A stretch of 42,867 nucleotides of DNA from Nanobdellota archaeon (GCA_038045005.1 JBBSYZ010000013.1:1-42867); one strand, 5' to 3'. Shown: positions 17,694-20,557, counted from the stretch's first letter. Made by a program: numbers and translations. Notes: a model not told the origin generated them from the letters alone.

Positions 17694-17809
17694 CGCTCCT
17701 GGTGGGATTTGAACCCACAAGTCTGGCAAGACAAAGGTTATCTTACCTCTCCCCAGTTTATTCGGGGAGACTTAAGACCTTCGCAATAACCAAATTATGC
17801 GACAGGAGC
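17694..17809 (-). tRNA. tRNA-Leu(UAA), class II, with a 31-nt canonical (37/38) intron
   Basis: Hand-folded. Acceptor GCUCCUG/CAGGAGC; 3-bp D stem; anticodon stem AAGGU/ACCUU with loop CUUAAG^...^A. The intron hairpin is UCUCCCC/GGGGAGA, and intron UAAG pairs with loop CUUA. Long variable arm GUCU-UGCC-AGAC; T arm GUGGG-UUCAAAU-CCCAC. A TATA box lies at about 17834-17845. Confidence 0.85.
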
Positions 17810-17852
17810 TTGTTCTTGATTATTTTAGAAGCGGTTTATATATTCTAGCCGA

Positions 17853-17950
17853 GGTTGTCCAGTGCATGAAATGTGAAAGTCCGAGCTTCTAAAACTAGAA
17901 AATTTTCAAGAATTACGCCTTTTAGCTTTTGTCCAGTGGTTGTCCAGTGC
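17853..17950. promoter_or_regulatory. Three copies of (GG)TTGTCCAGTG(C) upstream of the peptide/ThiF operon; candidate operator
   Basis: GGTTGTCCAGTGC occurs at 17853-17865 and 17938-17950, and TTGTCCAGTG at 17929-17938. The last two are tandem with 11-nt phasing. A TATA-like ATATATATAAA sits at about 18003-18013. Confidence 0.4.
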
Positions 17951-18056
17951 TGGCCACCAGTTTTCTTGCATCAAAATCTCAGTTTATTAAATTTACATGC
18001 CAATATATATAAACTAAACTCAAATTTCAATAAAAACTACTAATGGAGGGTAAAAC

Positions 18057-18212
18057 ATGGAGACCTTAGAACAAATTGCAAACGAGAAGACACCACAAGT
18101 TAAAGCAATAAATACGTATGAGTTACCTAAAAAAGCCCCGGAATATAAGGGGTTAGCCTTGCTGGAAGAAAAATCTTTTGATGGCCCAACAAGCATAAAA
18201 TACTGGATGTAA
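18057..18212 (+). CDS. 51-aa small protein, candidate precursor peptide (METLEQIANEKTPQVKAINTYELPKKAPEYKGLALLEEKSFDGPTSIKYWM)
   Basis: Hand-found and below the track cutoff. GGAGGG lies 7 nt upstream of the ATG, and the stop is 2 nt before the next gene start. Confidence 0.5.
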   Translation: METLEQIANEKTPQVKAINTYELPKKAPEYKGLALLEEKSFDGPTSIKYWM

Positions 18213-18214
18213 GT

Positions 18215-18823
18215 ATGATAAACCTTTCTTCTTTTTCTTTTATTTTTATTGGAGAAACTCACGGTTTTATTAATGATTTTGAAAAAGAGCGGGAGATAAT
18301 CAATAAAGTAAACCCGGAATTTGTGCTATCGGAACAAATGCAGGAAATAATTCTTGATACCAAAGAAAAATATTCTTATCTGATTCAAAAGCAAAAAATC
18401 TCAGAGTTAGTGTATTTTGAAGAAGTTAAAGATTTGATATTGCTTTGCCAAAAAAAGGGGATCAAACTAATCGGCATGGACTTGATTAATTTTGGATTCG
18501 GCGAAGAACTAATTTCTATTATAAAAGAAAAGAAATCACCGACTAAACTACAATCAAAACGAATAGAAGATACCTTGAAAAAAAGGGAATTAAAGCATTT
18601 AGAGATGATTAATTATCATAAGGGACAAGCCAAAGCCAAGAAACCAATCGTAGTGTTGTTAGGGTCGTGGCATTTAAGGGAAGATTCATTGCTAATGACT
18701 TCGCTAAATAATTATATTGCTTATTTTCCAAATGATTCTGAAGGGAACCAACTAATAGAACCACGCGGTAATATTAAGGATGTAAAATATGGTTATAGGA
18801 TTAAAAATGAACCAAAAAATTAA
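18215..18823 (+). CDS. Hypothetical protein with GExHG and GxxHL motifs (possible ChaN/EreA/TraB/Tiki-superfamily member)
   Basis: FIFIGETHGF is near the N-terminus and VVLLGSWHLRED near the C-terminus. The family assignment is tentative. Confidence 0.4.
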   Translation: MINLSSFSFIFIGETHGFINDFEKEREIINKVNPEFVLSEQMQEIILDTKEKYSYLIQKQKISELVYFEEVKDLILLCQKKGIKLIGMDLINFGFGEELISIIKEKKSPTKLQSKRIEDTLKKRELKHLEMINYHKGQAKAKKPIVVLLGSWHLREDSLLMTSLNNYIAYFPNDSEGNQLIEPRGNIKDVKYGYRIKNEPKN

Positions 18824-19859
18824 GCTTAAGGAATCTGTATATATCCTAAAGGAATCTGAGGAGATTTATCAAGTAGTATTCACTTCTACGAGAAGAATTA
18901 AGAGATTTAGCGTGGACCATTTGGTAAAAGAATTAATCTTTTCTGCAAAGTCAGAAACAAATATGCAAGAAGTTATTTCAAAGTTAGGGACGAAATATCC
19001 AGAAGAAGATATCGTTACGTGCTTATATTCCCTGGAAGCGGCCGGAATTGTTAACTTTTATGGTGATGATAAGATAAATCCAAGACATAAGAGACAGATT
19101 TCGTTTATCAATGAATTAACTGAAAATTGGGAAGAAACCATGAAATTACAAAAAAGGCTGGAGGAATCCAGAATTGCGGTATTTGGCATTGGTGGAATTG
19201 GAACCTGGATGGTTAACGGACTCAATCAGATCGGTATTGGGGAGATAAGGATAATCGATCCAGATATTGTAAGCATCAGCAATCTTAACCGCCAATTATT
19301 CTTTAATGAATCTGACCTCGGCCAGTACAAGGTTGACGTAATCTCTCAAAAACTTAGCGATGCAAACATTAAAAAATATTATGATACCGTTTCGAGAGAT
19401 CAACCATTGGATAAGATTGTGGAAAATTGCAATTTCTTAGTTAACTGTGCAGATTTTCCATCTGTTGCTGATACAACCAAAATAATAGATGAATATGCAA
19501 CAAGATATAATATCCCTTATAGTGTTGCGGGCGGTTATAATATGCATTTGGGGATGGTTGGCCCAATAATAGTTCCTGGAAAAACTGCTTGTTTTGATTG
19601 TTTCTTGGCTTATCAAAAAGAGAATGATCCATTAAGCAATTTGGAAAAAATTAAGGATGTCGAACAGACGGGAAGCTTAGGCCCGATCGCTGGAGCCATA
19701 GCGAATTTTCAAGTTATGGAAATTTTTAAATATATAACTGGAAAAGGTTCAGTGAACATTAACCGTTTTGTAGAAATAGATTTTATGGATTTTAACATAG
19801 AGTGGAGAGAATATTCTAAAAAACCAGATTGTATTACTTGTAATTTGCAGGCAAAGTGA
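18789..19859 (+). CDS. ThiF/MoeB/HesA-family E1-like adenylyltransferase with an N-terminal ~100-aa winged-helix (RRE/peptide-clamp-like) extension (MccB/PaaA-like architecture)
   Basis: VFGIGGIGTW (GxGxxG), DPDIVSISNLNRQ, CFDC...CITC zinc site. The N-extension is YILKESEEIYQVVFTSTRRIKRFSVDHLVKELI...CLYSLEAAGIV. An alternative start at 18807 (MNQKIK) is possible. It overlaps the upstream gene. Confidence 0.8.
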   Translation: MVIGLKMNQKIKLKESVYILKESEEIYQVVFTSTRRIKRFSVDHLVKELIFSAKSETNMQEVISKLGTKYPEEDIVTCLYSLEAAGIVNFYGDDKINPRHKRQISFINELTENWEETMKLQKRLEESRIAVFGIGGIGTWMVNGLNQIGIGEIRIIDPDIVSISNLNRQLFFNESDLGQYKVDVISQKLSDANIKKYYDTVSRDQPLDKIVENCNFLVNCADFPSVADTTKIIDEYATRYNIPYSVAGGYNMHLGMVGPIIVPGKTACFDCFLAYQKENDPLSNLEKIKDVEQTGSLGPIAGAIANFQVMEIFKYITGKGSVNINRFVEIDFMDFNIEWREYSKKPDCITCNLQAK

Positions 19860-19957
19860 TAAGTATTATTTATAATAATAGGAATATAATATTAGAGCAG
19901 GAATAATGTAATAATAGTCGCAAAAAGGTTTAATAATCCCGCCATCTTACTTCTACC

Positions 19958-20557
19958 ATGAACCGCGTTATCAAGCTACTGATGCTTTCAGATGTTTTTG
20001 TATTGACCGGCTTTGGATTGGTGCAGCCCATCCTGGCTATCTTCATCAAAGATAACATCGTCGGAGGAACCATCTTTGCGGCAGGATTAGCCAGCACTAT
20101 GTTTCTGATCACCAAATCAGCGATACAGCTTCCGTTTTCCCGCTATGTCGACCTGCATGATGATAAGATAAAATGGCTTATCGTCGGGACATTCTTTATC
20201 TCCTGCGTCCCATTCATCTATATTTTATCTGACCATATCTATTACATCTACGCCGCAGAGATAGTGCGCGGCATCGGCAGTGGATTGGCATTTCCGACCT
20301 GGCTGGGGTTGTGGAGCACTAATCTGGACAAACGAAAAGAAAGTTTTGAATGGAGTTTATACTCCACGCTGGTCAGCGTCGGAACCGCGGTCACCGCAGC
20401 TATAGGAGCATTGGTCGCTGAATATGTCGGATTTACGGCAACTTTTATCTTGGTGGGAGTCCTGTCATTGATCGGATGCATGGTGCTCTTGAAACTGCAG
20501 CACGAAAAAGTCAAACAGAAAGACGGGACTATCAAAAGATATAAGATTAAAACTTAA
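19958..20557 (+). CDS. Half-size (about 6-TM) MFS-like transporter
   Basis: 199 aa with six hydrophobic segments and the MFS-like loop FSRYVDLHDDK. The convergent rpe gene leaves no room for a second half. Confidence 0.55.
   Translation: MNRVIKLLMLSDVFVLTGFGLVQPILAIFIKDNIVGGTIFAAGLASTMFLITKSAIQLPFSRYVDLHDDKIKWLIVGTFFISCVPFIYILSDHIYYIYAAEIVRGIGSGLAFPTWLGLWSTNLDKRKESFEWSLYSTLVSVGTAVTAAIGALVAEYVGFTATFILVGVLSLIGCMVLLKLQHEKVKQKDGTIKRYKIKT

Follow-up and report, generated by a model that had tools for sequence, protein, structure and literature searches.

The genome of a Nanobdellota archaeon (GCA_038045005.1) carries, within a 42,867-nucleotide stretch (JBBSYZ010000013.1:1-42867, the whole of which is called the window below), a compact set of genes for a 51-residue peptide, a 202-residue hydrolase-like protein and an adenylyltransferase of the ThiF family. 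These three genes form one unit, which is found in DPANN archaea of the Woese-, Pace- and Nanoarchaeota. We rate the unit as an archaeal branch of those systems for ribosomally made peptides with post-translational modifications (RiPPs) in which a ThiF-like enzyme is fused to a RiPP recognition element (RRE), a branch whose precursor family and kind of partner enzyme are both new. It is rather probable that the module matures its peptide at the C-terminus. That the maturation is specifically a macrocyclisation, as the analogy with characterised systems suggests, is a tentative proposal to which we give somewhat less than an even chance.

A first-pass annotation of the window had described the locus as a candidate peptide-modification operon of four co-directional genes, and its open reading frame (ORF) coordinates agree with ours: all four lie on the + strand, with products of 51, 202, 356 and 199 residues. 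Several finer details were also read correctly. A strong Shine-Dalgarno sequence, GGAGGG, precedes the small ORF, the 202-residue gene begins 2 nt past the peptide stop codon, and the ThiF gene overlaps the 202-residue gene; comparison with homologues places the ThiF start at the second ATG, and the overlap is then 17 nt. The named motifs of the two larger proteins (IGETHG, LLGSWHL, GIGGIG, SNLNRQ, CFDC...CITC and LYSLEAAGIV) are all found in the window proteins. The small ORF was said to have been missed by the gene track, and this was mistaken, as it is already on record as a called gene (P0139).

A three-gene unit in DPANN archaea

Homologues of the ThiF protein fall into at least 120 clusters among the matches listed; they share 57-65% identity, are of equal length and, where a source is named, come from DPANN archaea. 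The 45 loci that a survey of one genome per species yielded come almost entirely from metagenome-assembled genomes (MAGs) of Woese-, Pace- or Nanoarchaeota, and linkage was counted over 47 non-redundant loci, the window's own and 46 others. Of the 41 loci whose upstream sequence was long enough for ORF scanning, 40 have a small peptide gene upstream in the same orientation, and a hydrolase-like protein of about 190 residues lies beside ThiF in 44 of the 47. Every other gene family is found in 3 of the 47 loci at most. On long contigs the neighbours vary freely, yet the ORF of 44-58 residues and the ~190-residue protein always adjoin the ThiF gene.

The linkage is equally evident from the other direction. 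A DNA pattern back-translated from G-x-T-x-I-K-Y-W-M-stop, and so drawn from the peptide alone, matched 66 metagenome contigs, 62 of them with the full peptide signature. A ThiF enzyme was encoded no more than 2 kb downstream in all 29 peptide contigs that have at least 2.3 kb of downstream sequence, and the hydrolase was located in the same 29, by tblastn in 27 and by inspection in the other 2. Conservation of the small ORF beside orthologous E1 genes, whose absence would have counted against the first-pass reading, finds support in both searches. All told, the trio occurs in well over a hundred DPANN contigs.

Gene order within the unit is not fixed. Most lineages have the order peptide-hydrolase-ThiF; one locus has peptide-ThiF-hydrolase (L004), three have the peptide gene, an inverted hydrolase gene and then ThiF (L043, L074 and L112), and a fourth arrangement includes an extra gene for a protein of about 300 residues. 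That the partnership persists through these changes of order and orientation is strong evidence of functional coupling.

The fourth ORF of the window, which starts after a 98-nt gap downstream of the ThiF gene, is an unrelated host gene, a chance neighbour and no part of the module. Its product is, as first described, a protein of the major facilitator superfamily (MFS) with six transmembrane segments, and it matches only positions 2-183 of the 347 of Pfam MFS_1, the N-terminal six-helix half. The gene is missing from all 46 other non-redundant loci and was met only in the window's own species; its GC content at third codon positions (GC3) is 0.555, host-like, against 0.29-0.32 in the two enzyme genes. 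On these two grounds it is set apart, and the exporter that had been built into the system, together with the analogy to MccC, falls away. The 199-residue protein ends in a Lys-rich tail, and only 10 nt separate its gene from that for ribulose-phosphate 3-epimerase, which is convergent with it; the gene may have been truncated, or it may encode a true half-transporter.

Some loci deserve separate mention. In L017 (598-1251) the peptide gene is unrecognisable save for an 8-residue remnant, and a frameshift breaks the hydrolase gene, in which the His of THG is also changed to Pro; the ThiF gene is intact. Peptide and hydrolase may have decayed together, or the sequence may be in error. The closest relative of the window module, L051 (1290-3112; also L052), has a peptide 84% and a ThiF protein 83% identical to those of the window, and its ThiF gene breaks off near residue 234 and gives way to a DDE transposase, so that an insertion sequence has inactivated the module of that population. 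Full modules are also present in MAGs labelled Methanosarcinales, 'bacterium' and Gammaproteobacteria (L006, L041, L046); these are probably mis-binned DPANN contigs, and otherwise the module reaches beyond DPANN.

The four-gene arrangement marks a sub-clade in which the gene for the ~300-residue protein stands between the peptide gene and a more divergent hydrolase gene. The extra protein has the conserved motifs (A/S)(V/I)S(L/I)YD...D.H...G.PT and T(I/L)(D/E)DLIDL. Searches with it returned nothing from Pfam, noise from the PDB and IdsB at E 0.15 from NCBIfam, and hhalign against E. coli IspA gave E 0.11-0.27, with alignment only around the second DDxxD motif. An assignment to ComQ or the polyprenyl synthases was considered and set aside; the resemblance is faint, with no significant match, and is kept as a lead only.

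The enzyme, the hydrolase-like protein and the peptide

The adenylyltransferase matches the Pfam ThiF family (PF00899, E 3e-45) over residues 119-348, which leaves the N-terminal extension of about 115 residues that had been predicted for it. It groups with MccB and PaaA before MoeB and ThiF. In a sequence search of the PDB, MccB (1.5e-23) and PaaA (7e-18) came ahead of MoeB (3e-14) and ThiF (8e-13), and the alignment to MccB starts within the N-extension. Indeed, predicted structure gives the same picture: an AlphaFold2 (AF2) model (predicted local distance difference test, pLDDT, 88) was aligned by Foldseek to MccB (E 4.8e-22, query TM-score, TMq, 0.68) and to PaaA (E 1.1e-19) over 357 columns, at full length including the N-domain and with TMq of 0.67-0.68 for the two, whereas the alignments to ThiF, MoeB and UBA5 run to some 265-295 columns and take in the catalytic domain only. 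The NCBIfam models for ThiF, MoeB and UbaA all score far under their curated cut-offs (102 vs 275 bits; 90 vs 450).

At the level of predicted structure the N-domain resembles an RRE or peptide clamp, a likeness already noted at first pass. In the AF2 model it consists of 3-4 beta strands followed by 3 alpha helices (strands at residues 4-7, 11-15, 20-25 and 30-35, helices at 38-46, 53-60 and 66-78, and a further strand at 82-85), with block-mean pLDDT of 83-95 over residues 1-80 and 77 over residues 81-90, and it takes part in the 357-column alignments to MccB and PaaA.

Residues G127, G129, G130, G132, D151, N161, R162, Q163, K175 and D216 are invariant in 20 homologues, and the ATP-site residues line up with the NLTRQ, K and AD residues of MccB. 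By these residues, the nucleotide- and Mg-binding site (GxGGxG, D, NRQ, K, NCAD) is intact. The only invariant Cys among the 20 aligned homologues lies in the NCAD strand, and the segment that we take to be the counterpart of E. coli ThiF Cys184 reads EQTGSLGP, with no cysteine there. Alignment thus points to an enzyme with no thioester or acyl-disulfide Cys of the E1/ThiF type, and a Pfam scan of the protein found no rhodanese domain. The zinc site proposed at first pass is present in the window enzyme, where it would be formed by C268/C271 (CFDC) and C349/C352 (CITC), but no more than 7 of the 20 aligned homologues retain both Cys pairs. The others have lost both pairs along with the C-terminal tail, and the zinc site is therefore dispensable in the family.

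The relationships of the 202-residue protein are more distant. Its AF2 model (pLDDT 92) found its best PDB matches with meaningful overlap in RRSP (6a8j and 5w6l; probability 0.97/0.77, TMq 0.47), PMT (2ebf) and EreC (6xcq). Direct Pfam, NCBIfam and PDB sequence searches with the window protein gave nothing, and a family-profile search of the PDB gave noise; among 18 family members, sub-threshold Pfam matches to PF04187, the ChaN/Tiki family, were seen in 8 (best 3.3e-4) and to PF01963, the TraB/PrgY/GumN family, in 6. A family-profile search of 1.84 billion representatives gathered only 175 relatives, so the family is small. Some of its distant relatives pass Pfam gathering cut-offs, for PF01963 (P0169 and P0280) and for PF04187 (P0223, P0230, P0280 and P0287).

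In the family alignment T15-H16-G17, E40, R124 and G150-x-W152 are invariant, the first motif taking the form G-[DE]-T-H-G. We take the resulting GxxH...E...R...GxxH pattern to correspond to the motifs of the Tiki/Ere superfamily. Weakly scoring fold matches, the motif pattern, the sub-threshold direct Pfam matches and the transitive ones together support placing the protein in the Tiki/TraB/ChaN/Ere superfamily, as a minimal and divergent member, alongside RRSP, PMT and EreC, and the superfamily guessed at first pass is borne out. The protein is unlike other members in its size, for the family is far smaller (about 190-200 residues), and in having no direct Pfam match above threshold. Peptides or protein termini are the substrates of TraB/PrgY and Tiki proteins, and for graspetide loci a Tiki/TraB peptidase has been predicted to remove the leader (PMC8939145). 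The literature yielded no report of a Tiki/TraB-type protein paired with a ThiF-like enzyme.

The peptide family was assembled by ORF scanning of the loci together with a DNA-pattern scan; a protein-database search with the 51-residue peptide matched only 3 clusters, because of the word index of that search. There are 39 distinct sequences of 44-58 residues, conserved beside ThiF homologues, with an N-terminal M-E-x-L-E, a charged and variable middle, and a C-terminal block of 22 residues that follows the pattern Y-x-G-[LF]-x-x-[VIL]-E-[ED]-x-x-[YHF]-x-G-[GP]-T-S-[IV]-[KR]-Y-W-M-stop. Counted back from the C-terminus, Y-22 and G-20 are each present in 39/39 and T-7 in 39/40, the lone exception being the decayed remnant in L017, and Y-3, W-2 and M-1 are each present in 40/40. 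Neither S-6 (36/40) nor K-4 (32/40) is invariant. The front of this block is probably the sequence recognised by the RRE, and its end probably the core.

The window peptide had been remarked on for ending in ...KYWM and neither in Asn nor in Gly-Gly, and the same is true across the family: Met ends all 40 peptides, and none of the 40 has a C-terminal Asn or Gly-Gly. Exposure of a Gly-Gly by C-terminal trimming, in the manner of QbsE, is unlikely, since positions -9 and -8 (G in 32/40 and G or P in 35/40) are not invariant. An alternative precursor of the MccA type was also sought in the intergenic regions, where only two tiny Asn-ending ORFs were found, both without ribosome-binding sites, and it was rejected.

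A candidate pathway and its rivals

The proposed pathway has four steps. The N-terminal RRE-like domain would bind the peptide at the stretch Y-x-G-L-x-x-[VI]-E-[DE], and the adenylation domain, with ATP and Mg, would convert the alpha-carboxylate of the C-terminal Met51 to an acyl-adenylate. Attack on the adenylate by Thr-7, Tyr-3 or the indole nitrogen of Trp-2 would then close a C-terminal macrocycle with net loss of H2O, and the co-translated Tiki/TraB-like hydrolase would remove the leader or otherwise trim the product. The C-terminus as the activated group, the attacking nucleophile, the hydrolase as a peptidase and the role of the product are all argued here from analogy. Conservation this extreme in the core, with neither a transporter nor an immunity gene linked to the module, speaks for a fixed molecule of a signal- or cofactor-like kind and not for a diversifying antibiotic. 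In its complete form, the proposal is of a two-enzyme DPANN pathway that would make a Thr macrolactone, Tyr aryl ester or Trp indolylamide on Met and so provide a fixed symbiont signal or cofactor; we offer it as a possibility that is less likely than not. Of the substrate idea put forward at first pass, the conservation of the peptide with the enzymes stands, export has been dropped, and adenylation, cyclisation and trimming are steps that we infer.

The characterised RRE-ThiF RiPP enzymes all adenylate a peptide carboxylate, which is then captured by a nucleophile (PMC12150305, PMC12250964). The outcomes are diverse: MccB forms an N-P bond, GrcB a thiolactone, EnfB an imide or amide and IndF an indolylamide, and PaaA cyclises an activated Glu side chain to give a bicyclic core. 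Hydrophobic, Trp-containing C-terminal cores are known from IndA (EDTTNWYFI; PMC12150305) and EnfA (WWIVI; PMC12250964). The IndF/IndA/IndP system of Streptococcus pneumoniae (PMC12150305) resembles the DPANN module in being a minimal cluster, built on a ThiF-like enzyme with a fused RRE that is joined by a short precursor and a peptidase of metallo type, and its IndA core, like ...TSIKYWM, is hydrophobic and contains Trp; in the Ind system it is the C-terminal carboxylate that is adenylated and a side chain that captures it. The two differ in that the IndA Trp is at -4 and forms a 4-residue ring, whereas the DPANN Trp is at -2, and in that the Ind peptidase is of the M16 and not the Tiki/TraB type, in a system that is bacterial and transporter-linked. 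The likeness is drawn from the published description of the Ind system.

Other members of the class offer partial parallels. MccB is the closest solved structure, peptide clamp included, and in microcin C7 the short precursor gene likewise lies adjacent and upstream; MccA, however, ends in Asn and acquires an N-P-linked AMP at the cost of two ATP, whereas the DPANN peptide ends in an invariant Met. PaaA, of pantocin A, is the second-best structural match and also joins an RRE and an E1 domain that work on a ribosomal peptide (PaaP), but it activates an internal Glu within an EEN motif, which the DPANN peptide does not conserve. In EnfB, which acts on the enterofaecin precursor EnfA, and in GrcB, which makes a Glu-Cys thiolactone, an RRE-ThiF enzyme adenylates the C-terminal carboxylate and cyclises the peptide with one ATP, and the aromatic and hydrophobic end of EnfA is like KYWM. 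These systems are unlike the DPANN module in coming from Firmicutes, with ABC transporters and quorum-sensing regulators, and in their nucleophiles, a backbone amide and a Cys thiol, respectively; no Cys is conserved in the DPANN peptide.

Several points weigh against the proposed pathway. A PqqD/RRE sequence hidden Markov model has no match in the N-domain, and the likeness of that domain to an RRE is drawn from predicted structure. The Foldseek scores of the hydrolase are weak (E 8e-3 to 0.1, TMq 0.40-0.47), its second His, H153, is conserved in 16 of 18 members and replaced by Tyr in the other 2, and peptidase activity is not assured, because the superfamily includes esterases (Ere) and the haem-binding ChaN. 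Sequence alone cannot pick out the nucleophile. A ring from Trp(-2) to the C-terminus would be a strained 9-membered one, and Lys(-4) is variable. An invariant core across a phylum-level clade is atypical of antibiotic RiPPs, and no linked transporter is conserved across the 47 loci.

Some of these same features would suit an intermolecular use of the peptide, in which the adenylated Met carboxylate is passed to an external amine, as in a Pup- or ubiquitin-like tag or an EnfB-type amidation, or to sulfide to give a thiocarboxylate. The peptide would then be a small disordered tag or carrier and the Tiki-like enzyme a de-conjugase or processing hydrolase. A 22-residue C-terminus conserved clade-wide with no linked transporter or immunity gene suits intracellular housekeeping, as does the high enzyme identity between lineages (about 60%), and EnfB does amidate its activated C-terminus with free amines (PMC12250964). 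We nonetheless think this unlikely: the enzyme has neither a thioester or acyl-disulfide Cys nor a rhodanese domain, its RRE-type domain is typical of RiPP maturases, the peptide has neither the length nor the sequence complexity for a beta-grasp fold, nor a Gly-Gly end, and no ligase or E2-like partner is conserved nearby. About as improbable is a different role for the Tiki/Ere-like protein, not as leader peptidase but as the catalyst of a second step (transesterification or cyclisation) or as an esterase that reopens a lactone for regulation or immunity. The superfamily does contain macrolactone esterases, EreC is among the fold matches, the overlap of the hydrolase and ThiF genes suggests a complex, and H16 and E40 form what we take to be an Ere-type catalytic pair, as in EreB. 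Against this, the best fold matches are peptidases (RRSP), the Pfam matches are to TraB/PrgY and ChaN/Tiki and not to Ere, and nothing bears on a lactone.

The two remaining explanations have very little in their favour. One is a Trojan-horse peptidyl-nucleotide of the microcin C type, with AMP attached through an N-P bond and the product exported by an MFS protein, as in MccA/B/C. MccB is the closest solved relative of the enzyme, and an MFS-type gene does follow the enzyme gene in the window, but that gene encodes a 6-TM half and has the distribution and GC3 described above, the loci have no conserved equivalents of mccC, mccD, mccE or mccF, and the intergenic regions hold no Asn-ending ORF with a ribosome-binding site. 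Because no copy of the peptide ends in Asn, the chemistry is not that of microcin C, and we regard this explanation as highly improbable. The same can be said of an ordinary sulfur-carrier or SAMP-activating E1 (MoeB, ThiF or UbaA) with the small ORF and the 202-residue gene as unrelated neighbours. Public records do name the homologues 'SAMP-activating enzyme E1' or 'molybdopterin-synthase adenylyltransferase', and NCBIfam ThiF/MoeB models match at E ~1e-29, but at scores far below cut-off; MccB and PaaA outrank MoeB and ThiF, the extra N-domain is conserved, and whichever way the search is run, the enzyme shows obligatory linkage to the peptide and hydrolase. The called neighbours include no ThiS/MoaD/SAMP-like gene, the partner being instead a peptide of 44-58 residues that ends in YWM. 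On present evidence the public labels are wrong for these enzymes.

ThiF-like RiPP maturases are a young field, comprising MccB, PaaA, GrcB, EnfB and IndF, and the latest global mining of RRE-ThiF enzymes took in bacterial RefSeq only (PMC12150305). A search of the full-text literature met with no account of a ThiF-type RiPP system in archaea or in DPANN, nor of the peptide described here. Should the proposed peptide-maturation pathway prove correct, it would extend the enzyme class to archaea, add a precursor family with an unprecedented invariant Met terminus and bring in a partner of the Tiki/TraB fold; DPANN would thereby gain a first RiPP class, and no RiPP class before it would have relied on an enzyme of that fold. 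The genomes of DPANN archaea are very small and their interactions with hosts poorly understood, and a peptide product conserved over Woese-, Pace- and Nanoarchaeota therefore offers a tangible way into their biology. To test the module, no more than three small genes need be expressed.

Genomic setting and neighbouring features

The window is archaeal, with genes for FEN-1, aIF5B and a tRNA-splicing endonuclease. Its mapped features are collected in Table 1, together with the four-gene loci.

Table 1. Positions of the module, its parts and nearby features in the window, and of the extra gene in four-gene loci
Feature	Position	Strand	Basis or remark
tRNA gene, 34-nt intron in anticodon loop	17694-17809	-	Rfam, 44.5 bits
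Exact direct repeat GGTTGTCCAGTGC	17853-17865 and 17938-17950; partial copy 17927-17939		Between tRNA and peptide promoter
TATA-box-like AT-rich element ATATATATAAA	18003..18013	+	~45 nt 5' of peptide start; read from sequence
Shine-Dalgarno-like GGAGGG	18045..18050	+	6 nt 5' of peptide ATG
Putative precursor-peptide gene, 51 aa, METLEQIANEKTPQVKAINTYELPKKAPEYKGLALLEEKSFDGPTSIKYWM	18057..18212	+	ORF; conserved beside ThiF homologues
Conserved C-terminal 22 residues of peptide, Y30...M51	18144..18209	+	Position counts over family
Predicted minimal Tiki/TraB/ChaN/Ere-superfamily hydrolase, 202 aa	18215..18823	+	AF2 fold, Foldseek, Pfam
MccB/PaaA-like ThiF-family adenylyltransferase, 350 aa	18807..19859	+	Pfam, PDB sequence search, Foldseek
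Alternative ThiF ORF, from upstream ATG 18789, 356 aa	18789-19859	+
RRE/peptide-clamp-like N-terminal domain, residues ~1-88	18807..19070	+	Predicted structure
Adenylation (E1/ThiF) domain	19143..19832	+	Pfam residues 119-348; alignment to homologues and MccB
Half-MFS gene, 199 aa	19958-20557	+	ORF; Pfam MFS_1
Fourth gene, L026	2420-3355
Fourth gene, L037	2453-3388
Fourth gene, L039	2435-3373
Fourth gene, L084, L088, L095, L110, L115

The peptide, hydrolase and ThiF genes form a block of low GC content (17800-19900; 0.34, vs 0.43 in the rest of the window). At third codon positions the peptide gene (0.39), like the two enzyme genes, lies below the neighbouring genes (0.47-0.60). In other genomes the module lies only about 0.04 under its flanks, and the far larger gap here suggests that the module was laterally acquired, fairly recently, in the lineage of the window. 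A mobile-element origin was considered and rejected: the viral contigs searched held no relatives of the module, the low-GC block beside the tRNA gene is not flanked by direct repeats of the att type, and no integrase was seen.

The tRNA gene sits directly upstream of the low-GC module; ARAGORN missed it and reported no tRNA anywhere in the window. The element ATATATATAAA may be the archaeal promoter of the module, to go by its sequence and position. A scan for sigma-70 promoters and intrinsic terminators gave counts equal to those in shuffled controls and was uninformative, the organism being archaeal. Between the tRNA gene and the putative promoter lies the exact direct repeat GGTTGTCCAGTGC, for which 0.02 occurrences are expected by chance. 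Relatives lack it, and contigs of the same species (L055-L057) are the only ones to carry it; it may be a regulatory site.

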